Shown here: positions 33,353 through 63,564 of the stretch, in pieces | Layout of the letters: each line of letters starts with the position of its first letter | Position numbering within the stretch: the first letter of the stretch is position 1 | Origin: Eledone cirrhosa | Taxonomy: Eukaryota | DNA length: 64,000 nt | NCBI GenBank assembly: GCA_964016885.1 | Contig: OZ024753.1 | Coordinates: 12,462,001 to 12,526,000, forward strand | Direction of reading: 5' to 3' | The notes under the pieces: model-generated | Told to the model about the DNA's origin: nothing | Database searches by the model: none | The model's input: the letters and a program-made list of their open reading frames with translations, nothing else | Program-made: the position numbers and the translations under genes

Positions 33353-33548
33353 ATAACAAAGGAAATGTGGCAAGGAACCAGATGGACCATAACGCACCAG
33401 AGTACTCAGTACTTAGAGTAGTAGAGTGGGAAATAGGAAAAAGTATGACCTCGACGGCAGAGATCAAGTCGTTTCGATGGCTATTTCTGTCCAGAAATAT
33501 CCGTCGAAACGGCTTGAGCTCTGCCGTCGAGGTCGTACTTTTTCCTAT
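33353..33548. mobile_element. Family C palindromic element (3' half of an HHR mirrored)
   Basis: Palindrome 33433-33548 with GAAA-CGGC-ttgagctct-GCCG-TC. Tail 33353-33432. Confidence 0.75.
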
Positions 33549-33619
33549 ATATATATGTATATGTGATAAAGGTAAATGACGGGAGGCCTAAAAGGTTGAA
33601 TTTTCTTAAGTATTATTTC

Positions 33620-33840
33620 TGCAAAAAGACTACAGTTTGCTGGTCAATGTCACCGAGCCGAGAAAGGATTCATTTCGTCTCTCCTTCTGGATAGGTCTAG
33701 TCACGAGAACTAACTTTCCCAGACGCCAGTGCTGGACATATGGGACCTGGGGACAGCAATGCAGGAGCAAACAGTGTAGAAATGGATTGTCAACAGGGTT
33801 CCGTCTGCTCACGGGGGAGTCGAAGTATGATGATGAATAA
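33620..33840 (+). mobile_element. RTE-like LINE 3' end
   Basis: aaaagactacagtttgctggtca (RLQFAG) shared with 43960-44200. Ends in gatgatga. Confidence 0.7.
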
Positions 33841-34050
33841 AAAACATACAAGTCAGCAACCCATATATCATCGTTGAATTCGCATCGGCAGAGTGCGGGA
33901 GAGCATTCTCTGGTGCTCAGAAACACAGGCAGCCTCGTGTTTGCGGAAGATAGCGAGTGACATGCGATATGACAATAGATATTACAAACTGTGGGGCTCA
34001 CTCTTGAGGTTATCGAACAACCCAAAACATAATACCGGGGAGAAGGGAGT

Positions 34051-34137
34051 ATTATACATATTTCGGATGTACTGTTGTACATCCGAAATATGTATAATAA
34101 AATGTAATTGATCAAAAGAACATCTATTTTATTAATA

Positions 34138-34138
<1 letters not shown>
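34051..34138. mobile_element. Family B fragment folded back at HHR loop II
   Basis: attatacatatttcggatgtac-tgtt-gtacatccgaaatatgtataat is a perfect 22-bp palindrome. Compare 44770-44850. Confidence 0.7.
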
Positions 34139-34187
<49 letters not shown>

Positions 34188-34242
34188 CAAATGAATGAAT
34201 GGATGAAGGAGTTACAAGCCGTTAAAACAAGTCCTTTATATA

Positions 34243-34282
34243 GCTCTTAAACGTGTTTCGCCTACAGGGGCTCTTCAGAGGC
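34243..34282 (-). ncRNA. Degenerate hammerhead in an inverted segment 5' of the PLE RT
   Basis: Minus strand: CUGAAGA GCCC cugu AGGC GAAA cacguu UA agagc. Stems I and III are imperfect. Confidence 0.5.
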
Positions 34283-34289
34283 AGAAGTT

Positions 34290-35690
34290 CTTCTCTCAAG
34301 TTTATACCGTTACCAAGCAGAAAAACTCACCTTAAGCAACTTATTGCTGCGACTAATTCGTTTATACGTAGAGTCACATGGAAGGCCTGCCATATGGACA
34401 AGGATGCAGATAAACAACCGGTGCTTAAAGAAAGGTATAGATTTAACACCTACAAGAACCCTCCGCATAACACACTGCTGGATACCTTTGAGGAGGACCT
34501 ACTCAATATGATCAAGAACGTCAAGTTTAAGAATAGGCGTAAATGTACTAATGCTGTCCTGAACTCTCTGGACACCCTGATCACTAAAATAAAAAAAATG
34601 ATAAGGGCATATTTGTAGCCTCTGATAAAACCAAGAACCTGTATAAATTGGATGTAAGTAGATATAGACAATTGATCTCAAATGAGCTGAGCAAAAAATG
34701 CAACCCCTCCCCCCACACACACACACCTAGTAGCACACTCAAGGACATAAACAAAGGAGGTAAGCACATTGTAACTAACTTAGATATAGATAAATACACA
34801 GACCCATACTTACCTATGACACCAACATTCTCTCTTAAGGATCACAAATGTAACTTTAATGAAAACCCCTCTGTTAGATTAATATGCCCCTCCACTTCGG
34901 ATATAGGTAGAATTAACAAAGTGATCCTTGATAGGATAATACCCGTACTTAATAGTAACGCTAAGGTCCGCCTTTGGAACAATACGGACCAGGTCATCAA
35001 ATGGTTCACAAATATTCGAGATAAGGATTCTTTAATATTTATTCAGTTCGACATGGATAATTACTATGCTTCTATCTCCCCTATAATCCTAAATAAGGCC
35101 CTCATCTTAGCTAGATCTAATACTAGTTCAACTAAAAAAGAAATAGACATAGTACTTGCAGCGAGACGAACCATCATATACTTCGAAGGCTCATACGGGA
35201 CCCGAGCCAACCGTCCTGATAATTTCGATGTCACGATGGGCTCGAGTGACTCGACACAGGTAACCGACCTAGTTGGAATATACCTCCTACATAAGGTCAG
35301 GGATGATATCCCCGTACTACAAGGAGTTGTAAATAGGGACGACGCCCTATTTACTGTTAGGATTCACAACCCCCGTAGGACAGAAAACCTTAATAAACAT
35401 ATACATAAGTTATTTAAAACGTACGGCCTCTCAGTTACAATAGACCATAACCATAACATAGTTAACTTCTTAGATGTAACATTAGAGTTAGATACTGGCC
35501 TATACAGACCGTACGACAGGCCGGGTGAGGTCCTGTCTTACATTAAGAAAGCTTCTAACTACTCTAAATCTGCACTTAACTCTATAGTGAGTAGCATCTC
35601 ACACAGAATCTTCAGGCTGTCGGCCAACGAAAACGTCTTTGATTCTTTATCTCACCTCTGTATGCCTCTCTTACGAAACCTGAACCCTAT
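34290..35690 (+). pseudogene. Penelope-like retroelement reverse transcriptase (possibly Naiad-type), frameshifted and 3'-truncated
   Basis: FIRRVTWKA..FEEDLLNMIKNVKF..SDKTKNLY..VRLICP..FIQFDMDNYY..FDVTMGS..DLVGIYLL..RDDAL..NFLDVTL..YRPY. Frameshift near 34600. Confidence 0.88.
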
Positions 35691-35753
<63 letters not shown>

Positions 35754-35754
35754 T

Positions 35755-36149
35755 AAAAAAGGAATTCCAACTCTGTCTAATTTACTCTTTTTATTTACAA
35801 TCCTTTAACATTATAAATATTATAATGAAATAGTATGGTAGAATATTAAATGTTAATTGAACAAGTACTTTCATGCTTTCACAATCTTCAGGGTCATATT
35901 CAGTGGTGACAGTTAAGTTTGCAATTTTCAACAGTTAAAAATTGCAAACTTGACTGTCACCACTGAATATGAACCCGAAGATTGTGAAAGCATGGAAGTA
36001 CTTGTTCAATTAACATTTAATATTCTACCATACTATTTCATTATATCATTATAATTTTAAAGGATTGTAAATAAAACGAGTAAATCAGACAAAGTTGGAA
36101 TTCCTTTTATTACTATAATCTTGTATACACAATCATACACACTCGTGTA

Positions 36150-36150
<1 letters not shown>
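35755..36150. mobile_element. Family F palindromic HHR mini-element
   Basis: ~170-bp arms centred ~35933. Minus-strand HHR 35858-35896: CUGAAGA-uUGUgaaaGCAu-GAAA-GUAC-UU-GUUCA. Tail on the right arm. Confidence 0.8.
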
Positions 36151-36208
<58 letters not shown>

Positions 36209-36476
36209 TCGACAAGTATCAAAATTGTAGAAACTTGTAACAAAAGTACAAATCTCTACAAATTCCATACTTGACGACCCGATGTATATAAATATATATC
36301 TTGTAAAAACAATTTATTTTATAAAGAAATCAAAAATCATTTTTAGATATAACCATAATTATAATAATTCTTTCTAATTTCTTTATTATCTATTTACTTA
36401 TTAATCGTAATAATAATGTAAACACATATAGGCACACATCTGTATATATGTATATATGTATATGTGTGCGAGTGCC

Positions 36477-36518
<42 letters not shown>

Positions 36519-36539
36519 ACTGACAGAATGTGAAAGCAA

Positions 36540-36602
<63 letters not shown>

Positions 36603-36879
36603 TTATTGAAAAGGAAATCAGATAACAAAATTCAAAAATGGAAAAAAAAACAAACCTACAATTAAATATTAGACATTTAGTCTCAGTACGGTTATATGAT
36701 TCTCAAGAACGTAATGGACTGATAGATCAGAAAGCAGATAAACACTCACTCATAAGCATACTTAAATTCATCCGCACCCTTCCACTATATATATATATCT
36801 ACCCCCCACTCTCTTGAGCGTGAAAGTAATAAACATTTATTGTACTGCCTCTCTGTTTTGTCCCTGTTCAAATTTTTCC

Positions 36880-36925
<46 letters not shown>

Positions 36926-37109
36926 ATACATTAGTAGAGAAAGCTTTAAGCAATACTCCGACCGACTTCCGCCCCACTCAACAAACAATAGGATATACCT
37001 TAGTATAATCCCAATTATACGTTTGGGGTGCTAACTATACGTATTTTGAGGATAGACAGTTGTATTATTTTATATGAGACATAATTAAATACATCACTCT
37101 TTATATATA

Positions 37110-37493
37110 TAACAAAGGAATTGTGGTAAGGAAACAGATGGACCATAACGCACCAGAGTACTCAATACTTAGAGTAGTAGAGTGGGAATAGGAAAAAGTA
37201 TGACCCCCACCCCACGGCAGAGCTCAAGCCGTTTCGGCGGGTATTTCTGGACTGAAATAGCCGTCGAAACGGCTTGAGCTCTGCCGTCGGGGTCATACTT
37301 TTTCCTATATATATATATATATATATATATATAATGAAGGAAATGTGGTAAGGAACTATGTGGACCATAACGCACCAAAGTACTCAATACTTAGGGTAGT
37401 AGAGTGGGTAATAGGAACGAGTAGGACCCCGACGGCTGAGCTCAAGCCGTCGGTCGAAACGGCTTGAGCTCAGCCGTCGGGGTCCTACTCGTT

Positions 37494-37498
<5 letters not shown>
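37110..37498. mobile_element. Two tandem family C elements separated by (TA)n
   Basis: Palindromes ~37188-37308 and 37411-37498, each with a tail on the left. Confidence 0.8.
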
Positions 37499-37534
<36 letters not shown>

Positions 37535-37796
37535 AAATATAATTATATATATATATATGTGTAAATATAATTATATATATATATATGTATGTATATATAT
37601 ATATAATGTCTATAAATATGTATGTATATAAGTGTTTATGAAAATATTTTTGCCCTCATATTGGAATATAACATTAATTTTAATGTTAGAAAAATGCACT
37701 TTGTATGCGTACTATGGCTTAATGATATTCACAGATGTAGGCATATAGACACTTACAGAAACAACATATACTCACACACACACACACATATATATA

Positions 37797-38061
37797 TGGT
37801 GGCTGCCAACTCGTTTTCGAGTACGGCCACTACTCTATATCCATGTAGGAGAACCCCTACCGATGCGCTGAACGAGTGTGACTTTTTAGTCCAGCCAGCG
37901 ACTTGAAAACTCTGGTACAAACACTACACTTGTGACAATTATTGACACATAGTGCTGGGCCCATGGTACCATCTGACGACAAGTGCAGAGAGATCTCCAG
38001 ATATAAAGCAATGCCTGTGCCGTGAAGCTTTTATAGTGAGCAAAGGCACTGCACAAAGCTA
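37797..38061 (-). mobile_element. Family K repeat (partial)
   Basis: Reverse complement of 53021-53283 and 56460-56722. All three end at gccacc. Confidence 0.75.
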
Positions 38062-38115
38062 GTATATATATATATATACACACATACATACTCACATATA
38101 TGCATACACACACAA

Positions 38116-38166
<51 letters not shown>

Positions 38167-39204
38167 CACATATATACATATATATTTATATATATGCATA
38201 CACATATATATTTATATATTCATGAGTGTGTGCATTAACGTAGGTGTCTTTACTTGTGTATATATATGTGTGTGTGTGTGCATGTGTTTGTGTATATATA
38301 TATATATATATATAATGGGTATTTGTGTGCGCATTAATGTATGTGTCTTTCCGTGTGTAAATATATATGTATATGTACACTCACACATATATGCATGTAT
38401 AATGTCTATAAATATATATAATATAAATATATATATAATGTGTGTGTGTTTACGTTTGTATGTGTGTGTGTGTGTGTGCGTGTATTGTATTTCTGTGTGC
38501 GTCTGTCTTATAGGACAGCATCTCAATCACGTAAACATAACTTTCTAAATTTATGTAAATGATTAATTCTGAAAATTCCCAGATGAAAGTTTAGTTTACT
38601 ATCCATAAAAAATCAATTTAATATATTGTAATTAATTTCCAAGTTACAACAATTATGGAAAAGTAATTGATCGAATGATAACTTATTTCAGAATTGCTGG
38701 CAAGCTTTACACTCAGTTTAAAAAAAAGTGAAATGATCATTAAACATAAAACCACTTATTTTACTTTCTTTTATTCCTATAATAGTTCCAATAATTGAAA
38801 TACAGCCATCTTGGGGCACCACCTTCACCGGCGATATTCAATCTTATCGATCCGAGTAATTACTACATTCTAATATTTATTTCATCGATCTCTGACTATC
38901 GACTGGATACATTATACATTTATATAGACTGACATGATGTTACGCTTGGAAGAAATATAGGCACTTATTCTAACCAAATACAGACATGCCTATAAATATC
39001 GGTTCCATCGACTAGATCCACACAGAAACTAATGTTCAACCAAAACTTTTATTAGAAACAATCGGCTCATATTCCAAACAGCAATATTGATCAGGAACAA
39101 CATATTTAAGACCAAGTGGTCCTCTCTACAAAATGGCTAAATCTGCATATAACAATATTTAGATAATATTTTATAGTTAATATGAAACATTGTCAGATAT
39201 GTAA

Positions 39205-39828
39205 TAATTGTTTCTACAATAGGCACAAGGCCAGCAAATACACCAGTGTATTACTGGTATTTTATTTTATCGACCCCCGTTAGGATGAAAGGCAAAGTTA
39301 ACCTCGACGGTATTTGAACTTAGAATGGCAAGCACCGTAACTCTATGCTGTAAAGCATGGCGTCCGACCCTCTACCGACACTGCCAATCCACCACGCTTG
39401 TGAGATATATAATGGTTTCTTATATAGGTACAAGGCCAGCAATTTTGGGAGAGGGGGAACTCGATTAAATCGACCCCAGTACATTTCTGGTACTTTATTT
39501 TATCGACCCCGTAAGAATAAAAGGCAAAATTAACCGCGGTGGGATTTGAACTCAGATCATAAAGGGCTGTAACTCTGTGTTGCAAATCCACCGCCCTTAT
39601 GTATAGAATATAATGGTTTCTTATATAGGCACAAGGCCAGTAATGTTGGTGGAGGGGAAAGTCGATTAAATCGACCCCAGTGCCTTACTGGTTCTTTATT
39701 TTATCGACCCCGTAAGGATGAAAGGCAAAGTTAACCTCAGTGGGGTTTGAACTCAGATCATAAAGAGCCGTAACTATGCTGCAAAGCATGGCGTCCGACC
39801 CCCTACCGATACTGCCAATCCACCGCCC
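39205..39828 (-). mobile_element. Three head-to-tail SINE family 1 copies
   Basis: Three repeats of caaggccag..atcgacccc..atttgaact..aatccacc. Confidence 0.85.
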
Positions 39829-40595
39829 TGAGATATGTAATAATAATTGATTGTTTAGGAGTTGGACCAGTTAAGCGAGAAGACATCGTTCTGTTTTTTT
39901 GTTTTGCATTTGGAAAGAGGGTGATAACCCTGAAATATCAGGTGATGGTGGTAAAAACTCCCAGGAGAGCTGGGCACCAGAAGGTCTTCAGAGAAGAAAC
40001 CACCCCGCTTAAGCGACTGTTTCCACCCTTAAATTCTTACATTTTAAGGGGGCCGAGTCGCATCCAGATCATGACATTTAGCCATTCAGAAAAATGGGAG
40101 ACTTGCTGTGTATTTAAACCGTATAAAGATTTTGTTGGCAGGAACTAGCTGAAACTGTTCTCCGTTGACTCTGCTTTCATAATTATATTTAAACACTTTC
40201 TTGAAATAAAAAAAATAGCGTTGGTAGTCATGGTAGCGGTGAGACGTCAGCAGTATCTCCGGTGCTATCACCAGACATGTACCCTTTATATATTTCCTAA
40301 CACATTGAACCGGCTTTCCTATCAATTATTATTGAGATAATATTTTGCTACACCACTTTGTTTCATATCCTAACTGTACGTTGATCGAAATAAAATACCA
40401 GTAATACACTGGGATATTTGCTGGCCTTGTGCCTATTGTAGAAAGAATTATTACATATCTTTCACCCTAATCCATCTTTATAACAGGGAACCTACATACG
40501 AAGCTGATCTACACATATCCAAACTGTAGTTTTCTGTATAGAATAATTTAATATTTAATGCGATGTTTTAAAGGAAAGTGCAATTTTAATATATA

Positions 40596-41415
40596 CTAGA
40601 CCACCCGTGACCCGTTGGGTCCCGTTCACTTAAACATCATTTAAAAATAATTAAAATGTACACAGACATGCATATAATGTAAAATGAAATTGGAAGGTCA
40701 TTCTCACTTAAGAATATTTTTTTTATATATGCCAAAACATATTTTTTTAATCGTATTCACTTGAAAATAATTGTAAAAAAATGTGTAAATACTTTTTGTA
40801 TTTTCGATAAAAAAAAAAATTAAAAGAAAGCTAAAATATAAATGTTTAATGTAAGAACAACTTGTATTTTCTATAAAAAAACAAACTAAAATAGTGTTTG
40901 TGTAAAGAAAGTTAAAATATAAATACTTACTGTACGAACAACTTGTATTTTCGAAATAACATTCACTTAAAAATATTTCTATATAATTAAAATATTCTGT
41001 TTGTTAAACAGATTTACGCCAAACTTGTTTTATTCCGTTTGTATTCCCATTTCAGGGTTATTTTAATTTCGGAATATTTTCCCATTATGCACTGTTTTGG
41101 CTATTTAGGAAGGTACCCCCAAAAAACCATATCTCGGGAACCCGATTTACGCGAAACTTGTTTTATTCCATTTGTATTCCCATTTTAGGGGCAACTTCCT
41201 TTCAAAGTATTTTCCCATTATGATGCCTTTGGGTTGTATTACATTACAGACAAGACACAGTCACAGACTTTTAGTATTATACTAGACCACCCATGACAGG
41301 TGGGGTCATGTTTACTTCAAAATATTTTTTTTAAAATCATGTTCACTTAAAAAATAATTTGAAATGATTAAAATATACACAGACATGTATATAATGTGAA
41401 ATGAAACTGGAAGGC

Positions 41416-41459
<44 letters not shown>

Positions 41460-41897
41460 ATGTGTATATATATATGTATGTGTGTGTGTATATATATATA
41501 TGTGGGTGTCTGTGATCTATTATACGGTCATAGACACACACATATATACACACACACACACACACTCCCATATATTTATGTACTCAACAACACCACCAGC
41601 TCTCTTCCATTCTCCTCTGACTCTTCTCCCTCTCTCTATGTCTCTCTTTCAATCTAATCTCCCACAACCACTATCCCTTCGTCTCTAGCTTTCTCTCTCT
41701 TTGTTTATGATGGTACACGGAAAAAACCCATATCTCGGTAACCCGTGGTCCGATTTACACGAAACTTGTTTTATTCCGTTTGTATTCCCATTTCAGGAGC
41801 AACCCCATTTCAAAGTATCTCCCATTACGCGCGGTTTTGGCTGTATTACATTACATACAAGCAAGCAAACAATCACAGGCTTTTAGTATTATATAGA
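40596..41897 (-). mobile_element. Two tandem non-autonomous Helitrons
   Basis: Minus strand starts A|TCTATATAATACT at 41897. 3' hairpin plus CTAG at 41282 and 40596. Internal segments repeat (aaacttgttttattcc..tgtattcccattt). Confidence 0.7.
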
Positions 41898-43559: not shown

Positions 43560-44200
43560 TAATGAGAGTAAGACAGAATATATCACAACCTCCGCTGAAC
43601 CATCTGATTTGAAATCACTCAATAATACATCCATGGAAAGGGTCGAGAACTTTAAATACCTTGGCTCTCATGTCATAGACTCTGAAAAAGATTTCTGCAT
43701 CCGTAAAGCTCTGGGATGAGATACGTGCAATAGGCTTGACAAGACTTGGCGCTCAAATTTATCATCATCTTTCGAACATTGATTGAACCAGTACTACCAT
43801 ATGGATCAGAAAGATAGACCTTATCTGTTCGTCTTGAAAGACGGCTGGGTGGAGGATATAGAAATCTGCTCAGAAGAAACAAAAACATAATCTGGAGATC
43901 ACACGCAACACTTGAAACCATCTACGGAGATTTGATTCCAATATGCCTCAGACTCAAGCAAAAAAGACTACAGTTTGCTGGTCACTGTCATCGAGCTGAC
44001 AAAGAAATCATTTCATCTCTCCGTCTGTGGCATCCCTCTCGATGTGTCTATTCACTAAAACTGACTTTCCCAGACACCATAGCTCGGGACTCAGAGCTGG
44101 ACATAAAGGATCTGGGGACAGCAATCAGGACCAAACAGCGTGGAAAGGGAGTGTCAAGAGAATTCCGACTACCCACAGAGGAGTCAAAGGATGATGATAA
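43560..44200 (+). pseudogene. RTE-like LINE 3' coding remnant
   Basis: NESKTEY..VENFKYLGS..IRKALG; IEPVLPYGSE; RLQFAGHCHRA. Contains stops and frameshifts. Confidence 0.8.
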
Positions 44201-44519
44201 TGTCTATGGAATGCTCAGCCACTAGCACGTTAATTTCACGAGCAGTCTGTTCTGTTTATCGGATCAAGTGGAACGCTCATCGCCCTAACCGACGGAGTGC
44301 TTCAGTTACATATATCGTGCCTCACAGGGGATTTTCTCTCGCTTGTACTCGGTGTGTAGCCGTTTATAATATGCACTTGTTAAATAGCGAAATTTACATA
44401 TAATTGTTTGAGAAAGTTTAATTATACGTAAGTATAATTCTGTGTCCGCGTCTGTGTTTGCACGCGTGAGTGGGTGTTTGCCTTGATGACTGCCTATATA
44501 TATATATGACTGCCTACAC

Positions 44520-44578
<59 letters not shown>

Positions 44579-44691: not shown

Positions 44692-44763
<72 letters not shown>

Positions 44764-44799
44764 TACAAATATTAATAAAATAGATGTTCTTTTGATCAA

Positions 44800-44846
44800 T
44801 TACATATTTCGGATGTACAACAGTACGTCCTCATCAGACAAAATAT
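44800..44846 (-). ncRNA. Hammerhead, family B (3' strand of stem I deleted)
   Basis: UAUUUUGU CUGAUGA GGACGUAC uguu GUACAUCC GAAA UAUGUA. Confidence 0.65.
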
Positions 44847-44969
44847 AATGATACATGACATACCCTGAGATGTTAAATGGTTAAGATTTAATCAATCTAC
44901 TGTAAAACTCATTCTTTGATATACTCATTGAATCTTGTTTAACACTTTAATATATATATAATATAGTAC

Positions 44970-45165
44970 GTTATTCCGGGTTGAATCGGAGGTAACCACA
45001 GTAAGTAAGGTACTCAATACATTGCAGAGTATAAAAGTTTTAATATAGATGAGATTCTACAGGACTAGAACTGTTTCATTCTTTAGAAATCATCAGGAAT
45101 CTCAGTGATTCCTGATGATTTCTAAAGAATGAAACAGTTCTAGTCCTGTAGAATCTCATCTATAT
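44970..45165. mobile_element. Family D perfect palindrome carrying two intact divergent hammerheads
   Basis: HHRs at 45053-45101 (minus) and 45107-45155 (plus): GAUUC CUGAUGA uUUC uaaa GAAu GAAA CAG uucuaguc CUG UA GAAUC. 5-nt spacer. Confidence 0.85.
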
Positions 45166-45959: not shown

Positions 45960-46920
45960 AAGGGTCTTTGGAGTAACGTTACTCGATAGTGTGTGTAGCT
46001 CGGAGATCAGTGAGTCACTCCAGGTAGAGCCACTACTTCTACGAATTGAGAGATCACAGCTCCGACACTATGAGCATGTGGTTAGAATGTCTCAGGACAG
46101 ATATATAGCTCGGAGATCAGAGAGTCGCTCCAGGTAGAGCCCCTACTTCTCCGAATTGAGAGATCACAGCTCCGACACTATGGGCATGTGGCTAGAATGT
46201 CTCAGGAAAGAATCACTGGACAGATTTATAGCTTGGAGATCAGAGAGTCACTCCAGGTAGAGCCCCTACTTCTACGAATTGAGAGATCACAGCTCCGACA
46301 CTATGGGCATGTGGCTAGAATGTCTCAGGAAAGAATCACTGGACAGATTTATAGCTCGGAGATCAGAGCGTCGCTCCAGTTAGAGCCCCTACTTCTACGA
46401 ATTGAGAGATCACAGCTCCGACACTATGGGCATGTGGCTAGAATGTCTCAGGGAAGAATCACTGGACAGATTTATAGCTTGGAGATCAGAGAGTCACTCC
46501 AGGTAGAGCCCCTACTTCTACGAATTGAGAGATCACAGCTCCGACACTATGGGCATGTGGCTAGAATGTCTCAGGGAAGAATCACTGGACAGATTTATAG
46601 CTCGGAGATCAGAGCGTCGCTTCAGGTAGAGCCCCTACTTCTACGAATTGAGAGATCACAGCTCAGATACTATAAGCATGTGGTTAGCATGTCTCAGGAA
46701 AGAATCGCTGGACAGATTTTACGGGCGTACCAACCAGTAGGAGACCCAGGGGTAGACCTCGAGCAAGACGGTTAGATAACATCCATGAGCTTGGCTGGTC
46801 AGCCTTGGGGATCCAGCCCCGAATCATTTGGAGACGGATTCTTCTGACAGGACCCGTTGGAGGGAGTGTTTGAGGACCCTGTCCGCCACGACTCTCTCGG
46901 GAATAAGTAGCCCAAGAAGA
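45960..46920 (+). mobile_element. RTE-type LINE 3' end with an internal 123-bp tandem array
   Basis: EPLLLRIERSQLRHYGHVARM repeated. Units start at 45998, 46108, 46231, 46354, 46477 and 46600. Confidence 0.85.
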
Positions 46921-49855: not shown

Positions 49856-50606
49856 GAAATAGTTCTTTGCTCATATAATATATATATATATATATATATA
49901 TTATATGAGCTAAGAAATATTTCATTTGTTGGTAATTCCTAAATAAATATAGTTTCCATTTATTAATATCATTGATATACATACACATACACACACATAT
50001 ATATATATATACACACATTTTAGTACAGCATCAACGAAGCTTTTAGCTGCGGCCAAGCTAACGAATGTAGATTCGGAATGCAGCTTACCACTCGATGGAC
50101 AATATTACCCCAGAGTTATAACAATGCGTTTAGACAGCTTTGCAAATCAAATATAGCGACCGACAGTCTGGCCGCATTGCCATAGCAACCAAAAAAACTG
50201 AACTCAGGAAAAGATTTTGACTGACCTGGACCATCGCGTGGACATCGAATGCAACACATAACGCATAACGTATAGCATACAATGTACATCACATATAACA
50301 TACAACATCCACGCTACGTTTCTGTAAAACCGAGATCGATAAATTCTGCTTGCAGGGGTCTGCAAGTTAATGGCCTTTCACGACAGAAAAAAGGATTTAC
50401 TTCGTCAAAAAGTCTTGCGGTGTGTATTTTCTAGCAGTAATTTTCGCTATAGACACGTGGTTTTCCCAAATGGAGGTAACCCCCGTTTTGGCAGTTAATT
50501 CGAAATTTGTGACAAAGGAATGAAATTCCCTTAGACAAACCGAATTAAGCACCCAACCAGAAGTTATCAAACAAACAAACAAAAAATTAATCAATCAATA
50601 GAATTG

Positions 50607-50641
<35 letters not shown>

Positions 50642-50644
<3 letters not shown>

Positions 50645-50775
50645 CGAAGGAAGTGTGGTAAGGAACCAGATGGACCATAACGCAGCAGACTACTCAATAC
50701 TTAGGGTAGTAGAATCGGTAATAGGAAAATAGCCGTCGAAACGGCTTGAGCTCTGCCGTCGGGGTTAAACATTTT

Positions 50776-50780
<5 letters not shown>
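50642..50780. mobile_element. Family C element with one arm deleted
   Basis: Tail..ataggaaa|atagccgtcgaaacggcttgagctctgccgtc..ttttcctat. Confidence 0.7.
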
Positions 50781-50808
<28 letters not shown>

Positions 50809-52379: not shown

Positions 52380-52762
52380 TTAACTTGGACCTCACAATAT
52401 CCTTGTAACGAAGACGGAAGAGATACGCCGTGATATACATGTGGAAAATCCTAGAGGGACTAGCACCAAATTTTGGCATTGGGATCTGGACCAACCGTCT
52501 AGCAGGACGTCACTGTGTGGTGCCAAAGGTCCTGTCTTCCACATCTAGAATAAGGAGCAGATATTGCAATAGCCGGGGGTTTAAAGGACCTCAACTCTTC
52601 AACAAGCTGCCGAGGGAACTGAAAGATCTGTATGGTGTGGACGTGGATGTTTTCAAGAAAAATCACGACACCTTGCTATCCAGGATCCCGGATGAGCCCA
52701 CAGCAAGGCACGAGAGAATCCTAGGGGCAGCAGCAGCGAACTTCCTCTTGCACCAGTGGCCA
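52380..52762 (+). pseudogene. CR1/Jockey-group LINE 3' coding remnant
   Basis: RRKRYAVIYMWKILEG..GPQLFNKLP..VFKK..IPDEP. Confidence 0.7.
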
Positions 52763-52820
52763 TGTATGTATGTATATATAAATATAAGTATGTAAATATA
52801 TATATATGTATATATGTATG

Positions 52821-52865
<45 letters not shown>

Positions 52866-52866
52866 G

Positions 52867-52897
<31 letters not shown>

Positions 52898-53283
52898 GTA
52901 TGTGTATATATATTTATGTATATATATATGTATGTATATATGTATGTATATCAGAGTTGCAGGTGTTACATCAGAGTTCTTCTTTTTGGTAAATATCATC
53001 TTGGTTAAGAGAGTGGGACTGGCTTTGTGCAGTGCCTTTGCACACTATAAAAGCTTCACGGCACAGGCATTGTTTTATATCTGGAGATCTCTCTGAACTT
53101 GTCGTCACATGGTACCATGGGCCCAGCACTATGTGTCAGTAATTGTCACAAGTGTAGTGTTTGTACCAGAGTTTTCAAGTCGCTGGCTGGACTAAGAAGT
53201 CACACTCGTTCAGCGCATCGGTAGGGGTTCTTCTACATGGATATAAAGTAGTGGCCGTACTCGAAAACGAGTTGGCAGCCACC

Positions 53284-54106
53284 GACGGCTCTTTCGACCT
53301 AACTGTCAAGGATGGGTGGCACATTTTCTTCCTGTTAGAGTGACGGCAATGGCTGCACATTCCCGACAGACTTGAAGAGCTTGGTGTAGAAGTATTCGCA
53401 AACCTTTTCCACATCACTCTTGTCACTGACCGGTACTCCAACTGTGTTCTTCAGGGTCGTCACCTCCGATCTGTACTTTGTCATGTCCTCCTCGCATTTC
53501 TTGAGGCTCTTCTTTTCCTTGGCGGCCTTCAGGAGCTTCTCCATCCAGTACGCCTCGAAGTCTCTCTTCAGTTTTTGACGTATCACTCTGCTGAGAAGGG
53601 AATATTCGAGGTGATCTTCAGGTGTCCTCTTCATATTCTTCCACTTTTCACCCTCTTCAATAGCACAGTTTTACCTGCAATGTTATATGGCAGTGAAACT
53701 TGGGCTACAACGAAAAGAGAAGAGCAGAGGCTGGTAACGGCTCAAAGAGCAATGGAGAGATCAATGTTAGGAATCTCGTTGAGAGAGCACATCAAAAGCG
53801 AAGTCATCCGACAGAAGTCCGGCGTAGAGGGACGTCATCACGGAATATATGCGCAGCAAGTTCAGATGGGCTGGACACGTCGCCCGGTTCACCGATAATC
53901 GGTGGACCAGCGCAGTTGCCGAGTGGTACATGCGCGAGCGGAAACGACCACTCAGACGGCCTCCACGAAGGTGGAGTTACGATTTTAGGAATATGATTGG
54001 GACTACATGGATGAGGAAAGTACGATCCAGAGAGGAATGGACGGCGTGCTGTGGCCAGCGGCGCCGAATGGTCGCCCGACAGACTGGTCGGTCAAGGTCA
54101 AGGTGA
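53284..54106. pseudogene. RTE LINE with a 5' inversion
   Basis: Minus 53634->53284 encodes the pre-RT linker (..CEYFYTKLF..). Plus 53650-54106 encodes the C-terminus (LPAMLYGSETW..RWAGHVAR..RPPRRW). Confidence 0.75.
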
Positions 54107-54193: not shown

Positions 54194-54242
<49 letters not shown>

Positions 54243-54247
<5 letters not shown>

Positions 54248-54652
54248 TACACGGGAGTGTATCATTGTGTATAGAAGATTATATTAATAAAAGGGATTCC
54301 AAGTTTCTCTGATTTACTCGTTTTATTTACAATCCTTTAAAATTATAATGATATTATAATGAAATAGTATGGTAGAATATTAAATGTTAAATGTTAATTG
54401 AACAAGTACTTTCATGCTTTCGCAATCTTCAGGTTCCTATTCAGTGGTGACAGTCAAGTTGGCAATGTTCAACTGTTGAAAATTGCCAGCTTGACTGAAT
54501 ATGAACCTGAAGATTGCGAAAGCATGAAAGTATTTCAATTAATATTTAACATTTAATACTCTAGCATACTATTTCATTATAATATCATTATAATTTTAAA
54601 GGATTGTAAATAAAACGAATAAATCAGACAATGTTGGAACCCTTTTATTAAT
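54243..54652. mobile_element. Family F palindromic HHR mini-element (tail on left)
   Basis: Intact minus-strand HHR 54399-54436: GAAC CUGAAGA uUGCgaaaGCAu GAAA GUAC UU GUUC. Centre ~54472. Confidence 0.8.
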
Positions 54653-54776
54653 ATATATATATATATATATATATCAAGTAAGTATGTTTTGAAACAGTGA
54701 GCGAGTTTGAAATTAGAAAATATATAGCTTTCACCGTATTTTTGACTTTAGTATATATATATATCAAATTCCTTTA

Positions 54777-54816
<40 letters not shown>

Positions 54817-54916
54817 ATTAGAATACTGGAGCGTGTTTGAGTCAAACACCCTCTTCGTATTATAGAAATGACAGTAAAAGGTATAGCTCAATGCAGTTAA
54901 ACAGAGCCAATAAATT

Positions 54917-55003
54917 AAGAGAGTAAAACAAAGAATCCTTTAATACATTGTCGGCTAATAAAAACTTTTGATGTATTAAAGGATTCTTTGTTTTACTCTC
55001 TTA
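54917..55003. repeat. ~32-bp-arm inverted repeat
   Basis: aagagagtaaaacaaagaatcctttaatacat / atgtattaaaggattctttgttttactctctt. Confidence 0.8.
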
Positions 55004-55050: not shown

Positions 55051-55124
55051 TCACGACACATGTTTCAATAAGAGATAGATCGATCGTAAAGCCATGATCA
55101 ATTATCACTGATCTCATCAGGTGA
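55051..55124 (-). ncRNA. Hammerhead with extended stem II
   Basis: UCAC CUGAUGA (47 nt containing GAUC/GAUC pairing) GAAA CAUGUG UC GUGA. Confidence 0.6.
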
Positions 55125-55382: not shown

Positions 55383-55442
<60 letters not shown>

Positions 55443-55523
55443 GTATATATATATGTATGTAAGTATGTGTATATATATATACAATATATTAACAAATGGA
55501 AACTATATTTATAAAAGCATATT

Positions 55524-55589
55524 TATTTCATTATACATATTTCAAGGGCCACCAAGGTAAACTATGGTGCGCTTTCATCAGATAAAATA
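55524..55589 (-). ncRNA. Hammerhead ribozyme, family A
   Basis: Near-identical to 19464-19529. Confidence 0.8.
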
Positions 55590-55731
55590 TAATATGGGGT
55601 TAGTTTTATAAATAAATATTGACATACCCTTAAAAAATGCAACCATTCTGCATATCTACAGAATCCCTTTTATTAATATAATCTTCTATACACAATCATA
55701 CACTCACATGTATATATATATATATATATAT

Positions 55732-55924
55732 ATAGGAACAAGTAAGACCCCGACGGCTGAGCTCAAGCCGTTTCGACGGCTAATTCTGGACTGAATTAGC
55801 CGTCGAAACGGCTTGAGCTCAGCCGTCGGAGTCTTACTTGTTCCTATTACCCATTCTACTACCCTAAGTATTGAGTACTTTGGTGCGTTGTGGTCCACCT
55901 GGTTCCTTACCACATTTCCTTCGT

Positions 55925-55927
<3 letters not shown>
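55732..55927. mobile_element. Family C palindromic element (tail on right)
   Basis: Palindrome 55732-55847, loop tggact, GAAA-CGGCT-tgagctc-AGCCG-TC. Confidence 0.8.
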
Positions 55928-55959
<32 letters not shown>

Positions 55960-56119
55960 GTATGTATATATATATATGTATCCATGTATATATATATATA
56001 TATGTAAGTATGTGTATATATATGTATGTATGTAAGTATGTGTATATATATATATATATGTATGTATGTAAGTATGTGTATATATATATGTAAGTATGTG
56101 TATATATATATATATATAT

Positions 56120-56723
56120 GTCAGGTCACCAGTTGGTGCTACTGGTAACATGTATCCCAGTACAACCTGTCTTATGGTCGTTGGCGACTAAACTGGCAAC
56201 CCCACCAAGGTTTCTTGGTGAAGAGGGTGACTTTGGACATCCTGCAGGACTAAAAACAAAACCTGTCAAAGGGCAAAGGAGCTCTTAAGAGTCAATGGCC
56301 ATCCAAAATCACCGGGAGAGATGACCCCTTAGCCTTTGTCAAGGCAGAATTCTAGGAGAAGGAAAACTATGATATAACACCTGCAACTCTGATGGTATCC
56401 AATAATGTTGACTTGTTCTTCTTTTTGGTAAATATCATCTTGGTTAAGAGAGTGGGACTGGCTTTGTGCAGTGCCTTTTCTCACTATAAAAGCTTCACGG
56501 CACAGGCATTGCTTTATATCTGGAGATCTCTCAGCACTTGTCGTTACATGGTACCATGGGCCCAGCACTATGTGTCAATAATTGTCACAGGTGTAGTGTT
56601 TGTACCAGAGTTTTCAAGTCGCTGGCTGGACTAAAAAGTCACACTCGTTCAGCGCATCAGTAGGGGTTCTCCTACATGGATATATAGTAGTGGCCGTACT
56701 CGAAAACGAGTTGACAGCCACCA
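56120..56723 (+). mobile_element. Family K repeat, longest copy; 5' part resembles an RTE 5' UTR
   Basis: ctaaactggcaacccc and ggagaaggaaaact motifs. TA-rich repeats on both sides. Confidence 0.55.
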
Positions 56724-56749
56724 TGTATATATATATATATGTATGTAAG

Positions 56750-56780
<31 letters not shown>

Positions 56781-57067
56781 GAATGTAAGTATGTGTATAT
56801 ATATATATATATATGTGAGTATGTGTATATATATATATATGTATGTAAGTATGTGTATATATGTATATATATATATATGTATGTAAGTATGTGTATATAT
56901 GTATATATATTTATATATATATATGTGTGTGTATATATATGTATATGGATGTATATATGTGTGTGTGTATATATAGATATGTATATATGTGTGTGTGTGC
57001 ATATACATCTGTGTGTATATATGTATGTATATATAAATTTGTGTATGTGTGTGCATATATATATATG

Positions 57068-57105
<38 letters not shown>

Positions 57106-57469
57106 ATGTGTGTGTATATATGTATGTATATATATATGTGTGTGTGTATATATATGTATGAATATATGTCTAACCCTATGCTAGCGTGGAAGATAGATGT
57201 TAAACGACGATGATGATGATGATGATGATGAGTGTGTGTATGTGTGTGTGAATACACAAACCCTGAATAAATATGAATATGTCGCACGAAAGTTTAGTGA
57301 AATATTTTTATCTTTAGACAACATATTATTCAAATATTACCGACGCATTGTCCCACGGAAGATTACACATATAATCGTATCTACAGACATTTACTACTAA
57401 AAACATCACACATATTAAATATATATACATATGTTAGTATCTCTATATCTCTCTCTCTCTCTCTCTGTA

Positions 57470-57514
<45 letters not shown>

Positions 57515-57515
<1 letters not shown>

Positions 57516-57565
57516 GTTTCAGAAGATCCCGTTAAGGGTGAAAGCAGCGATTCTTTGCTTAAACT
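57515..57565 (+). ncRNA. Hammerhead-like motif, family E (CAGAAGA core)
   Basis: agttt CAGAAGA t ccc gttaa ggg t GAAA gca gcgattctt tgc TT aaact. Confidence 0.65.
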
Positions 57566-57581
57566 TTAATCTGTTATTTTA

Positions 57582-57644
<63 letters not shown>

Positions 57645-58354
57645 TATATTTTGAGAATAAACTCTCAGTCGTTTACAATAATTAAGCTCCAGGAAAAGGG
57701 GCTCTTCCGAGCAGTTAAATACATTTATAATATATGATAAACAGAAGAGACAGACAAATTGTATTCACTTTAATTAGTTTATTTCATTAATAGCTAACTT
57801 TGTCTGTTGCAATATAAACACATTTCGTGTTTATCATATATTTTAAATATATATATATATGAATAAAGTTAGTCCTTCATCAGTGATCTTCCAACCATCA
57901 TTGGTATTTAATCGCTTTAAAGACCATATACCTCCGGTTGGTGCGAGCAACGGCTAAAGAAAGTCGTTGGGACACGTAAATAAGGGGAACGAGCGAGAGT
58001 GTAAACAAACAAAGATGGTAAAGTAACGAAAAGTGAGGAAGAAAGAGTCAATCCCAGATTTCCATGAATATGAGTTCGGTGAAATCGTGAACGTGAGAGA
58101 ATAAAGACCATGAAACCTAGTCGAAATGTGAGCAAGGAAGGAATTCCGCACAGGTCAAACGGGATGAAGTAGGAGAGGTAGTAGCAGAGAGTGAGTGAGT
58201 GAAGGGTGAGGAAGAGGTTAACAGAGAGAGTGACTGTTAGAGAGGGTAAAGATACAGAGAAAGAGGAAGCAGTAAGAACGAAATAGACGGGTCACAGCGG
58301 GGGAAAATATATGTGTGAATATGAGAACAAACGTGTTGCGTGGTTGCAAATGGG

Positions 58355-58439
<85 letters not shown>

Positions 58440-59034
58440 TATATTTATGTGTGAATTCACAAATCAAACGCTGAATAAATAAGAATCGTGGCACGGGATG
58501 TTAGAAAAATATTTATATCTACAGATACAAATTATCAGTGTTTGTATGATAAAAGATTTATAATTACGACCAATGGGAAACGAAACACTTTAATTTAATT
58601 ATACGTTTTTATAATTTACTATATATCTTTAGAGATTAATCTATGCTGATAGATAACTGATGATTATTCATAAATCTACAGCGTGTTCATAATTTCCTAC
58701 ATAATTATTCAGCTTCTGAACTAGTTTCTAGAATAAAATTATTGAAATATTTCTTCTACAAAATGTTTTGCTGATAAGTTTTAAGTAATTATCATTTTTT
58801 TAAAGGGTGGTTTTTGATTTCCTATGTGAGATAATATTATCAGAAAAAAGATCAAAATTTGCGTTGATTTATTCTTTTGAAATTACAACTTAACCGATAT
58901 ACTTATGAAATAGTTTATGATATAATTTAATCTAAGTATTGTCATATATTTATAGAAAAATATGTCATATTTTATAGAATGGGAAAGTGCATCAAACTGT
59001 TATGCTCCTTAAATACTTAAACCTCTATCTAAAT

Positions 59035-59636
59035 CAGAGGTTCTCAAACATTTTAGCCACGCCCCTCACGGCCATGTAATGCCCTCAACGCCCCCAATCC
59101 TAGTTCAAAAGACACCTGCCTACACGCAAATTGTAAATAATATATAAATAAAATCGTTAAATTATATATTATACATAATATGATATGAAACACAAATTAA
59201 AATTTTGAAGACCACCACAATGCGTTATGAAAAATGTCAAATTGCCAACATAACAAAAGAATCTTATGAGATAAGATTGACTTGCTTGTTTGGAAGCAGA
59301 TTTAAATATAATATAAACTATGTATAAATACGTATTATATATTTTTTATTTTACTATATTTATATACAATATGTATCATTTGATATTCAATATACTATTA
59401 TACTATTATACTATTATACTAAGGATAGACACTGATCTGTTGGAGACGCAGGACATGGCAGCGATAATGAGGGACAGAGACCGCTGGAGAGAACTCGTCC
59501 ATGGATCTCGGGAATTTTACCCGCCTTAGATAGATAGATACTATTATATCATCTCTACCGCCACCCTAGGCCCAAGTGCCCTACTGGACCTTCTCAACGC
59601 CCCAGGGGGCTGTAGGGCCCACGGTGGGAAACTCTG
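59035..59636. mobile_element. hAT (Charlie/Buster-like) non-autonomous element
   Basis: TIRs CAGAGGTTCTCA / TGGGAAACTCTG, exact 8-bp TSD ATCTAAAT (59027-59034, 59637-59644). Contains a LINE 3' tip at 59420-59540. Confidence 0.85.
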
Positions 59637-60429
59637 ATCTAAATGTCACATCTGTTTCAACACCCTCTTAATACATATATACACAACCCTCTGTGGTGTC
59701 TATTCTCATGTGGTGTCTATTCTACTCGGGTTTGTTCGGCCAATTTAAAATGATCTTTGAAGTAAATGTACGGGAGTTATTGATGTGAGAGATAAGTTTG
59801 ATAAATTTGGGCCAGTATAGGCCCAGGCCATGTAACATGCATAATTTCATAAACGTTGCAAAATCATTACATGGTGTTGTTTCCGTGGATCGATGTACAA
59901 AAACATACACACACCAAGAGAGAAATAGATATATATATAGAGAGAGAGATATAAATATAGTGTGATAGATTGATTGATAGAGAGAGAGAGAGAGAGATAG
60001 GCAGAGAGAGAGAGAAGGAGATAGAGAAAGATACGGAGAGAGAGAGATGAGAGGCAGAGAGAGGTGAGAGAGAGAGAGAGAAAGAGATGAGAAGCAATGA
60101 GAGAGAGAGAGATAGCGATGAGAGAGGGAGGGAAATGAGGGGCAGAGAGAGATGAGACAGAGAGAGAGAGCGATGAGCGAGGGAGAGAGATGAGAAGCAG
60201 AGATAGAGAGGGAGGGAGAGAATGTTATTGGGAATTCTTATGTTATACAGATATATACACATCACAAAATTCAATAAAATTTACGATTGTAATGGAGTGA
60301 GCTATGTTGCATGTTAAAGCTGACTAAATCAAAGTCATATTGCCGGAGGTTTGTCATCAAATAGACAGATGTTAAATTGCTGTCTGTTTTAATTGCGATC
60401 GGATAAGATGAGTGCCGTATGTTATCCTT

Positions 60430-60890
60430 GCTGGCAGTATCGGAAGAGCACCGGACAATATGCTTTGCAGCATAGAGTTACAACCCTTTAAGTTCTGCGT
60501 TCAAATCCTGTCAAGGTCAGCTTTGCTTTTCATCCAAATGAGGTCAATAGAATTATATAAAATACCAGTAACGCACTGTGGTCAAATCCTGTTAAGGTTA
60601 GCTTTGCTTTTCATCGGAATGAGGTCAATAGAATTATATAAAATACCAGTAACGCGCTGGGGGCAAATCCTGCCAAGGTCAGCTTTGCTTTACATCCGAA
60701 TGATGTCAATAGAATTATATAAAATACCAGTAACGCGCTGAGGATAATTCCTGCCAAGGTCAGCTTTGCCTTTCATCCAAATGAGGTCAATAGAATTATA
60801 TAAAATACCAGTAACGCACTGGGGTCGAATTAATTTACTTTTCCCTATCCCATAATTGTTCGCCTTGTGCCTAAATCAGGAAATATTATT
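60430..60890 (+). mobile_element. SINE family 1 with a 4x internal 81-bp repeat
   Basis: Units start at 60502, 60583, 60664 and 60745. Confidence 0.8.
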
Positions 60891-61077
60891 AACAAACAAT
60901 AATTTACAAGAATCATTTGCAATCGATTCTGTGCATAACATTTTCTGTATTTTGATATTCCGGGAAATTACTTGGTCACCATGTGTATTTTCTCATTTAG
61001 GGAATTCCCATGTGTGATGAAGATCGGCGATTATATCTGTCCTCTAGATGAGTTTTTAGTACATTACTACTTTGACG

Positions 61078-61670
61078 CTAAACCCCGCCAATTGCAGACT
61101 GAGCATCAACATGAAATATTTTTATCCACAAATTTCGATCACCAGCAGTAGAGTTTAAAGAGTAAAGATCAAGTCCAGTCGATAAGTTGACATTATCAAA
61201 CCATCGTTTTGGCTGCCGGCCTCTACTTCTCTTACCAGCCAACCTTCCTTCCAGGAATATATAATACCTTTCGATTCCCAACAGCAGAGTTTAAAGAGCA
61301 AAGAAGAAGTCCAGTCCATAAGTTGACATTATCAAACCATCGTTTTGGCTGCCGGCCTCTGCTTCTCTTACCAGCCAACCTTCCTTCCAGGAACATATAA
61401 TACCTTTCGATTCCCAACAGCAGAGTTTAAAGAGCAAAGAAGAAGTCCAGTCCATAAGTTGACATTATCAAGCCATCGTTTTGGCTGCCGACCTCTGCTT
61501 CTCTTTCCATCTTTCCAGCCAATCTTCCTTCCAGGCATAACCTACTCACACCATGAGTTGATCTTTTTATATGGCCGTATATTTTGAGTACTCTTGACTT
61601 GACAATTGATGTAATTGGTCTAAGTCTGGTAATGTTGAGCAGCTCACTGATACAGATACGGTCGCTGGGC
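61078..61670 (-). pseudogene. RTE-type LINE 3' remnant with ~3x 136-bp repeat
   Basis: LKIYGHIKR..LEGRLAGKRSRGRQPKRWFDNV repeated. gagtttaaag at 61151, 61287 and 61423. Confidence 0.8.
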
Positions 61671-63313
61671 CGCTTGCCAGTCATAAGTACTTTATTGGAA
61701 GGCAAATGATCTAATCAGAGCGAACAACCTAGAATGTATGCATATACATCATTTACACACATTATCTATGTAACAAAAATCATACATGCCCACAAACTAT
61801 GTTTTAGAAAGTTGACGGTTTAAGGGAACAATCGAAAAACTTGGATATAATGTAATTGTGTTTAAAATCGGGAGAGGTAACATCCTATCCGGTAAAATAC
61901 CTGGGTACAAAACCTTTAGAAGGAATTATATCTGATTAGCTACCTTGCCTTGTAAATACAAGTCTAGACAAGTCTAGAGAAATTTCATAGATTATCTGGT
62001 GTTTTATTATGTTTTGATAATTATCATAAAACAGCAAACATAAATATAATCAGGTATAAGGTACGTTAATATGATTAAAATATAAGACAACGGTATTTAT
62101 CTGAGGAAGCAATATAAGTTGGGCAAAATGACAGAAGCAATAATGGTTTATAGTGTGGTAATACTAAAATAATCGGTCATTAGAAACAATTACATTGTGT
62201 TTTGTACGCAGGAAGAATTTCATCGTAAAATTATTCCATACATAATATGAATATAATAACTACAGTTATGATTATAAATGTAGGAGACGTATTATATTAA
62301 TAAAGCTATCAGATGTTTGTAATTCATAATTTTACGAGGTTGAGGAACTCATTTTAGAACTGAATCGTGAGTTAGTTGTCTATATATAACTGTAATACTG
62401 TATAGAAACTTATAAATTTGTACTTTACAAAGTAACTCTTCGTGTGACCTTGCAGCAGTGACTTTCATATAGTATAAATGTGTTTTAGTGTATTATATAC
62501 ACGCATATATCGAAAGGAACAATGTTTACGTTTAATTAATTTTAAATCAAATGTAATTCATTTGAAAAATTATTCCTCCAGATATTTAAATTAATTCATA
62601 TTTACATTCATATTAATTTAGCCAGGATATTTTTTCAGACAGAAAAGAACAAAATTTATTGGCAACATGGAAGGTGTTGTATGTGTATCTCAAAATCTTA
62701 CATGTTAATATTTGAACAACAGAAAACCACGACAAAAAATATATATAATGATTCTTCAAGACAGGAAGACATAAAAGTTAGCAAATTGCTCAGCCTACGC
62801 TAAAATGCTGTGATGTTGTAAAATAAAGTTGCAATAAAAGAGCATTATATCCTGCTGCACAATGTTTATAATACAAAGGAAACTTTTTACCGATAAATTG
62901 GTTAGATTCCATCCGGACCGAAGTATTAAAGAGGAAAATATAGGATGTATGTTATTGCTAAATGTTACTTACATAATAATGGCGACAGGAAACAAACTGT
63001 AGTATATATCCACTAGTAACATAATTATTGCTTAACGATTTAATACAAAGCATAATACCTCATTCGTTATACAAATGAATTACTTATTTATGTATTAAAG
63101 ATCTATCGTGCGATAGTGAATAAAAACATAAACCTGCATCAGAATATGATGAAAACACCAGATAGGTATCTAGTTAGTTAGTGTCAGGAATAGGTAAAAA
63201 AAAAGCTTAAGCTACAAACACATACACAGGCAGCTAGGTAGTGTTAGAAACACGTAAGAAAACAAATACATAAATACACTCTTCATACACACACAGACAC
63301 ACATATATATATA

Positions 63314-63564
63314 AGTTTATCCCGGGTTCAATCGGGGGTAGCCACAGTAAATAAGGTACTCAATATAGAAGCAGAGTATAAATATTTAATATAGAAATGT
63401 AGAAGCCATACCTATATATATATATATATATAGGAACAAGTATTACCCCAACGGCAGAGCTCAAAGGGGTCATTCTTGTTCCTATTACCCACTCTGCTAC
63501 CCTAAGTATTGAGTACTTTGGTGCGTTATGTTCCATCTGGTTCCTTACCACACATCCTTCGTTA
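63314..63564. mobile_element. Family D tail (minus) and a family C element with deleted centre
   Basis: 63314-63400 is the reverse complement of 27757-27843. 63431-63564 has family C arms plus tail. Confidence 0.7.

Follow-up and report, generated by a model that had tools for sequence, protein, structure and literature searches.

What process gives a short palindromic element two arms that agree within a copy, a central loop that can read in either direction and only half of a ribozyme? We address this question with family C, an element found in a 64,000-nucleotide stretch of the Eledone cirrhosa genome (Eukaryota; assembly GCA_964016885.1, contig OZ024753.1, positions 12,462,001 to 12,526,000 of the forward strand), hereafter the window, in which all coordinates are counted from the first letter. 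The answer that we hold to be probable, with considerable room left for others, is that family C is an abundant, non-coding and likely non-autonomous Penelope-like retroelement (PLE), and that both of its arms are likely copied from one RNA arm at each insertion, through double priming of reverse transcription and joining of the products at a hairpin, stem II.

Family C is a palindrome with a one-sided tail between TA runs

Oriented alike, the copies read (TA)n, distal arm, loop, tail-side arm, tail, (TA)n. The element is a head-to-head palindrome followed by a tail of about 77 nt on a single side, some 200 bases together (the whole unit measures about 195 bp), and has no open reading frame (ORF). 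Its fold is far beyond chance (z of -16; 0 of 200 shuffles as stable). Six copies lie in the window at the places given for them by the original prediction, which had been made from the letters of this DNA. The tail stands at one end only in 6/6 copies and TA runs flank both sides in 6/6, which makes any target duplication unreadable. These two facts, the one-sided tail and the TA-run location, identify the family; the prediction mentioned neither, nor the known PLE layout of an inverted pseudo-long terminal repeat (pLTR) plus tail.

Three of the six copies are intact, and all three have the same centre. Copy 1 (33353-33548, minus strand), with TA runs on both sides, consists of tail 33353-33432, tail-side arm 33433-33487, loop 33488-33493 and distal arm 33494-33548. 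Copy 2 (37109-37308, minus strand) has its tail at 37109-37187, a tail-side arm with a 5-nt insertion at 37188-37247, a reversed loop at 37248-37253 and its distal arm at 37254-37308. Copy 5 (55732-55927, plus strand) comprises distal arm 55732-55786, loop 55787-55792, tail-side arm 55793-55847 and tail 55848-55927. Intactness does not extend to the remaining three. Copy 3 (37331-37498, minus strand), in tandem with copy 2 across a TA run, joins tail 37331-37410 to a shortened palindrome (37411-37498) with another centre, which looks like a local snap-back at stem III rather than stem II. Copy 4 (50641-50780, minus strand) retains tail 50641-50720 and the distal arm, has lost the tail-side arm and loop, and shows 4-5 nt of ATTT(T) microhomology at the junction. 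Copy 6 (63430-63565, plus strand) has lost its centre and keeps the outer arm ends (63430-63485) and the tail (63486-63565).

Four further, diverged pieces lie at 4534-4580, 12256-12452, 12496-12550 and 17908-17968. The second (plus strand) represents a diverged subfamily with another loop type, in which an arm end (12256-12282) and a TA run precede a distal arm, loop and tail (12323-12452) without a tail-side arm; the last (plus strand) is a single arm of that subfamily and adjoins a tail of another family, D. In some copies a reading frame stays open across tail and arm; this was put down to chance, since no homologue was found among the 35-114 amino-acid proteins and the frame is broken in other copies.

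Family C is very abundant. In the 4 of 7 sequencing runs from which counts were taken, one copy was matched at 80% likeness by 19,574 and 17,478 contigs in two runs of one sample, and by 24,034 of 12,467,656 and 24,716 of 12,785,554 reads (0.19%) in two other samples; restriction site-associated DNA (RAD) counts are biased, as reads end at AATT sites inside the element, and they yield no flip:flop ratio. A pile-up of read ends at 55785, 55794 and 55797 was rejected as a loop effect, since it falls on the two AATT sites, where most likely the RAD enzyme cut. We discarded the idea that the family arose in assembly or polishing, since the arms of a copy are not identical and the element also turns up in the reads of two further individuals. 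Pattern scans gave 0 and 0 matches in viral contigs and 0 and 0 in prokaryote genomes; two metagenome matches, which share only a 19-mer and a few bases in otherwise unrelated DNA, were taken as chance.

Arms sort by copy and the loop reads either way

The original prediction held that arms match within a copy and differ between copies. Arms do sort by copy, with two amendments. They are not identical within a copy: distal and tail-side arms differ at 5/55 positions in 33353, 3/55 in 37109, 1/55 in 55732, 0/38 in 37331 and 4/22 in 63430. Furthermore, 33353 and 37109 have one arm type in common, their distal arms being 3/55 different, no more than the arms within each copy. Six alignment columns sort the arms by copy (both arms of one copy share a state that is absent from both arms of another), and grouping by side, named beforehand as the pattern that speaks for an inherited palindrome, appears in 0 columns. 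The corresponding copy:side counts in two other families of the window, B and E, are 1:0 and 3:0 (two copies each). Over the 22 columns common to five copies of family C, the differences between true arm pairs sum to 7, compared with a mean of 15.6 when the pairs are permuted; of the 120 permutations, only the true pairing reaches so low a value. No side-specific variant among the arms in the window is common to any two copies.

The prediction had left it open whether the second arm is regenerated at insertion or homogenised afterwards. We compared private mutations in the four long-armed copies, leaving out 50641 and 63430, and found 9/406 (2.2%) in arms and 9/307 (2.9%) in tails (Fisher's exact test, p 0.63). 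Arms decay like tails, which fits arms that started identical and then drifted, that is, rebuilding at insertion rather than constant repair. Rebuilding at insertion is accordingly favoured over later homogenisation.

The loop reads toward the tail in 33353 (at 33488) and in 55732 (at 55787) and away from it in 37109 (at 37248), exactly as had been noticed at first reading, so that it is reversed in 1/3 intact copies. The closest pair of copies, 33353 and 37109 (tails 4/79 different), have opposite orientations; in this small sample loop orientation does not follow lineage. Among the loose ends of reads from two other individuals, 687 and 608 finish in the reversed loop, and 1285 and 1328 show the second loop type, which the window has around 12376. 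The loop of 33353 itself may be an in-register mix of both orientations or carry one substitution, with the letter in question present in 12% of the depth in X1.

A hammerhead-like 3' half is present without the core

Once freed from its mirror, an arm folds into a 12-bp stem II, an open GAA, a 6-bp stem III with a palindromic loop and GUC, and the predicted order of hairpin, GAAA, stem III and GUC is indeed present. In copy 5 this hammerhead-like half (55775-55827, plus strand) has stem II at 55775-55804, GAAA at 55805-55808, a near-palindromic stem III at 55808-55826 and GUC at 55825-55827, with no CUGANGA upstream. As in a type I hammerhead, stem II is closed by G10.1-C11.1 and followed by GAAA, stem III and UH; the stem II pairing of family C follows from the palindrome itself. 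GAAAC is unbroken at all 7 positions retained by the six copies. In line with the original prediction no copy contains CTGANGA, and a scan of both strands of the six copies and of three diverged pieces gave neither this motif nor a core of the covaried form X-TGAN-X'-A. Read from its sequence, family C is not a hammerhead ribozyme, the core being absent. A reading in a shifted register, which would make CCGTCGA a decayed core, fails because no GAAA follows. The Rfam hammerhead model gave 0 window matches at its gathering score, an insensitive test that missed the complete motifs of related families too, and a scan by E-value returned hairpin and TA-repeat noise, with no hammerhead among the 150 of 379 matches listed.

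We consider the 3' half of family C to be probably a real hammerhead remnant, and hammerhead ancestry to be likely, because of three other families in the window. The first, family B (1202-1413, 44958-45165, 27706-27849 and 63306-63395), has the same layout and a complete type I hammerhead with a 4-bp stem III; the palindrome plus tail at 44958-45165 (minus strand) has one in each arm, and the centres differ between the two palindromic copies. The GUA site of family B precedes the arm end by 15-21 nt and the tail end by about 98 nt; GUC in family C precedes them by 17-20 and 100 nt. Tails of the two families share a 15-nt hairpin at 14/15 identical positions (19/5000 shuffles); in copy 5 this small tail hairpin, GTA-TTGAG-TAC (55868-55878, plus strand), may be a protein-binding site. 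The second, family G, shows loss of CTGATGA by folding at stem II, the step proposed below, in one case with a short mirror part. Its copy at 44758-44880 (minus strand) carries CTGATGA-stem II-GAAA (at 44837) with a 12-nt deletion over the cleavage site; its copy at 34050-34150 (plus strand) is folded at the corresponding stem II and, where CTGATGA would stand, carries the complement of the 3' side. The third, family D (25003-25133, 30562-30757, 12055-12216, 24628-24703 and 57518-57593), has a hammerhead-like motif whose core is replaced by CAGAAGA in 4/5 copies shown and a fold centre that varies; at 25003 the centre lies inside the core, hence one strand reads CTGAAGA. Loss of the core thus appears to be tolerated in these elements, and family C may plausibly descend from a hammerhead truncated within stem II.

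The original prediction offered lost catalysis and cleavage in trans as alternatives, of which loss is favoured. In the predicted fold of the full RNA the half pairs with its mirror (-102.8 against about -30.5 kcal/mol), which would bury it by about 72 kcal/mol and leave it inactive.

Two cDNAs from one RNA arm as the proposed source of the palindrome

Family C shows a head-to-head inverted repeat with a palindrome at the join, a one-sided tail and a microsatellite target, the structural features of PLE insertions, for which the steps that complete insertion and form inverted repeats are stated as open (PMC8557442, PMC11167929, PMC3846280). We propose the following series of events. A PLE protein supplied in trans would nick both strands of a TA run, and reverse transcription of the element RNA would start from two primed positions, the tail end and, about 77 nt further in, the arm end. 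Each of the resulting cDNAs would copy the one arm and continue into the hairpin of stem II, where the self-complementary stem would let the two unite, the loop coming from either cDNA to give flip or flop. As the join would fall downstream of CUGANGA, an ancestral type I hammerhead would be left with its 3' half alone, predicted to be dead and not needed. Two cDNAs drawn from one arm and joined in stem II would account together for copy-specific arms, the one-sided tail, the fixed centre, the loss of all sequence 5' of stem II and a loop found in both orientations. Variant frequencies at 8 mirror-position pairs agree with this model but are confounded, since tail-side arms can align to the distal arm, and one pair fits badly (6% vs 0.9%).

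Several observations weigh against this proposal. No autonomous PLE with the arm or tail of family C was found in the window, whose PLE-like ORF regions gave no match to either. The tail of about 77 nt compares with 30-40 bp for published PLEs. Loop evidence within the window comes to 3 copies. The half-hammerhead pattern, defined after sight, arises in 518/20000 shuffles; stems II and III share the same 6-mer, and the half could be a by-product of fold-back duplication. The unfolded parent around CTGANGA that the original prediction postulated was found neither in the window nor in the 24 of 870 loose ends listed, which are compatible with a rare master copy with a full core. The arm tree supports a single within-copy pair (94/94) and leaves the remainder unresolved. 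The mutation-load comparison holds 18 changes only and has low power, and CpG-rich arms could hide some repair. Finally, three of six copies have other centres, which later deletion could equally explain.

The strongest competitor, which we judge unlikely, also makes family C a PLE passenger, with the second arm formed by snap-back of one cDNA at stem II (self-priming) and the loop reversed later by host template switching or recombination between arms. Self-priming is how the head-to-head PLE repeats with junction palindromes have been read (Arkhipova et al. 2013, PMC3846280), the centre of copy 37331 resembles a short snap-back at stem III, and template switching between inverted repeats has been reported to invert the spacer (PMC8604942). 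This explanation covers all but the either-way loop: a single snap-back on sense RNA fixes loop direction relative to the tail, yet the closest two copies differ and reversed loops are common in reads, so that a second, frequent process is needed.

Less probable again is a palindrome inherited whole, whose arms are homogenised and whose loop is inverted after insertion by host template switching (quasi-palindrome correction) or gene conversion. One known process would then give both arm homogenisation and spacer inversion (PMC8604942, PMC8794818), and the nearly perfect arms of 55732 and 37331, in copies with 1 and 3 private tail changes, suit it well. However, homogenisation predicts arms cleaner than tails, whereas the pooled one-sided arm mutations equal those of tails; 33353 retains 5 uncorrected arm mismatches; and inherited arms should leave some side-specific variants, which no two copies have in common.

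We give little credence to a DNA-based element, be it MITE-like, Helentron-like or a rolling-hairpin replicon with parvovirus-like flip/flop ends, whose hammerhead likeness would have arisen by accident from nested fold-backs. DNA replication that is primed by hairpins typically yields flip/flop loops, DNA transposons often insert at TA, and the shuffle rate of the half-hammerhead motif (2.6%) leaves room for accident. On the other hand, a miniature inverted-repeat transposable element (MITE) or other DNA transposon with terminal inverted repeats (TIRs) has inverted repeats at both termini, and in family C one arm is internal and followed by the 77-nt tail in 6/6 copies; family C is therefore not a MITE. 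Sister families of the same layout carry full hammerheads, one of them shares its tail hairpin with family C, and the 10 ORFs scanned in the window included no recognisable transposase, Rep or helicase. Least credible of all is a half ribozyme cut in trans by another RNA supplying the CUGAUGA strand: the freed half folds suitably and keeps its GAAAC, but the full transcript is predicted to bury it, no strand with the needed flanks around an intact CTGANGA was found among 29 and 15 loose window matches, and PLE insertion in vitro is unaffected by hammerhead mutations, cleavage thus being dispensable for a PLE (PMC11167929).

Returning to two cDNAs joined in stem II, we tentatively entertain a further step, in which family C is a self-perpetuating palindromic PLE parasite without an unfolded master. 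The palindromic copy would itself be the template, both daughter arms would derive from the tail-side arm, and stem II would be kept as a splint for joining cDNAs. If true, loop orientation would record the joining cDNA at many thousands of loci and give a read-out of the PLE second-end step. Family C would also show that a PLE passenger can multiply without its ribozyme. As a short and abundant family with marked arms and an asymmetric loop, family C is one in which counting could separate snap-back, two-cDNA joining and later repair, and it offers a ready template for the existing in vitro PLE system.

Other elements in the window

The window is AT-rich (GC 0.16-0.44 per 2 kb) with many TA, CA and GA microsatellites. 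At least five other families share the arrangement of tail, palindrome and TA: A (401), B (1202 and 45048), D (25003), E (35757 and 54286) and F (32582). Families A, B and E carry CTGANGA...GAAA. Family A (401-716, 1017-1167, 11669-11740, 17981-18201, 19414-19586 and 55474-55647) has a tail and a long palindrome with a complete minimal hammerhead (palindromic loop III) per arm, and several of its copies are one-armed. Family E forms 350-bp palindromes with a hammerhead-like motif (35757-36160 and 54237-54655); its tail is also found at 55661-55723 and 49954-50011, and the tail sequence recurs beside unrelated DNA. Family F (32539-32824, 7839-7928 and 20385-20454) consists of a tail and a 245-bp palindrome with TA runs inside both arms, and the scan of the window for CTGANGA...GAAA gave no match in it. 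Different palindromic families adjoin in the same TA runs at 37109-37498, 63306-63565, 55474-55927, 12055-12600 and 17823-18201. Hammerhead-like singletons occur at 8419 (8350-8516), 17529 (17460-17626) and 31188, and a tail-plus-palindrome element at 54814-55003 showed no core.

The 10 ORFs scanned comprise retroelement debris only. A decayed PLE-like reverse transcriptase (RT) ORF starts at about 34290 on the plus strand, within PLE-like debris (34244-35700) that matches homologues; its best match is from Argonauta hians (40% identity). At 34185-35700 a hammerhead motif on the minus strand (34278) stands before this ORF, the two meeting in a tiny palindrome, which is the classical arrangement of an inverted pLTR and an ORF. 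A C-terminal ORF piece at 6953-7480, which we take from its motifs to be GIY-YIG-like with a CxxC-like motif, has a hammerhead-like motif in sense orientation (7703) and a TA run after it (6953-7745 in all). The PLE-like ORFs gave no Pfam match, and the GIY-YIG-like piece no alignment to P0008. LINE-like (long interspersed nuclear element) RT fragments lie at 26387-27561, 43818-44225, 46086-46775 and 52409-53898, with RVT_1 matches at 26694 and 27169; that at 46086-46775 is a tandemly repeated piece of a LINE-like RT ORF.

Comparison with known systems

The layout of family C is already known from PLEs as an inverted pLTR plus tail, and a curation guide treats inverted pLTRs and 3' extensions as routine (PMC8969392). 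Searching titles and abstracts, with subscription journals, Repbase, Dfam and supplements outside the search, we found no description of a fixed-length palindromic half-hammerhead PLE passenger with a reversible loop; a name for this family may well exist already.

Non-LTR retrozymes of animals (PMC7229834; bioRxiv 10.64898/2026.07.22.740005) are, like family C, short, non-coding and hammerhead-related, and are proposed to be PLE derivatives. They form head-to-tail tandems with a complete hammerhead per unit, whereas family C is head-to-head with an incomplete one, and it is therefore not a non-LTR retrozyme. Among hammerheads, the minimal and type I motifs of PLEs have in common with family C the C11.1 before GAAA, a palindromic stem or loop III, the UH triplet and mirror motifs on opposite strands, and in Schistosoma the pLTRs of PLEs include hammerheads in pairs, one per strand, at a spacing of 100-700 bp (Cervera and De la Pena 2014, PMC4209133). 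Family C differs from them in lacking CUGANGA, in its long stem III (6 bp) and in that both halves share one stem II.

Apart from the joining step, the biochemistry that our model needs is supplied by the Poseidon element PAc of Anolis, whose purified protein nicks and extends both strands of AT-rich DNA and starts at two RNA sites bounding the tail (Frangieh et al. 2024, PMC11167929); that element, however, is autonomous and from another host. Closest in structure are insertions of endonuclease-containing (EN+) PLEs, often an inverted 5'-truncated copy with a tail at one end, of which Naiads prefer (TA)n (Craig et al. 2021, PMC8557442). As described there and in PMC3846280, they show the same head-to-head repeat, palindrome at the join, one-end tail and microsatellite target. 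In comparison, family C stands out by having no ORF, a length of about 195 bp, the same centre in its intact copies, a loop that reads both ways and a very high copy number.

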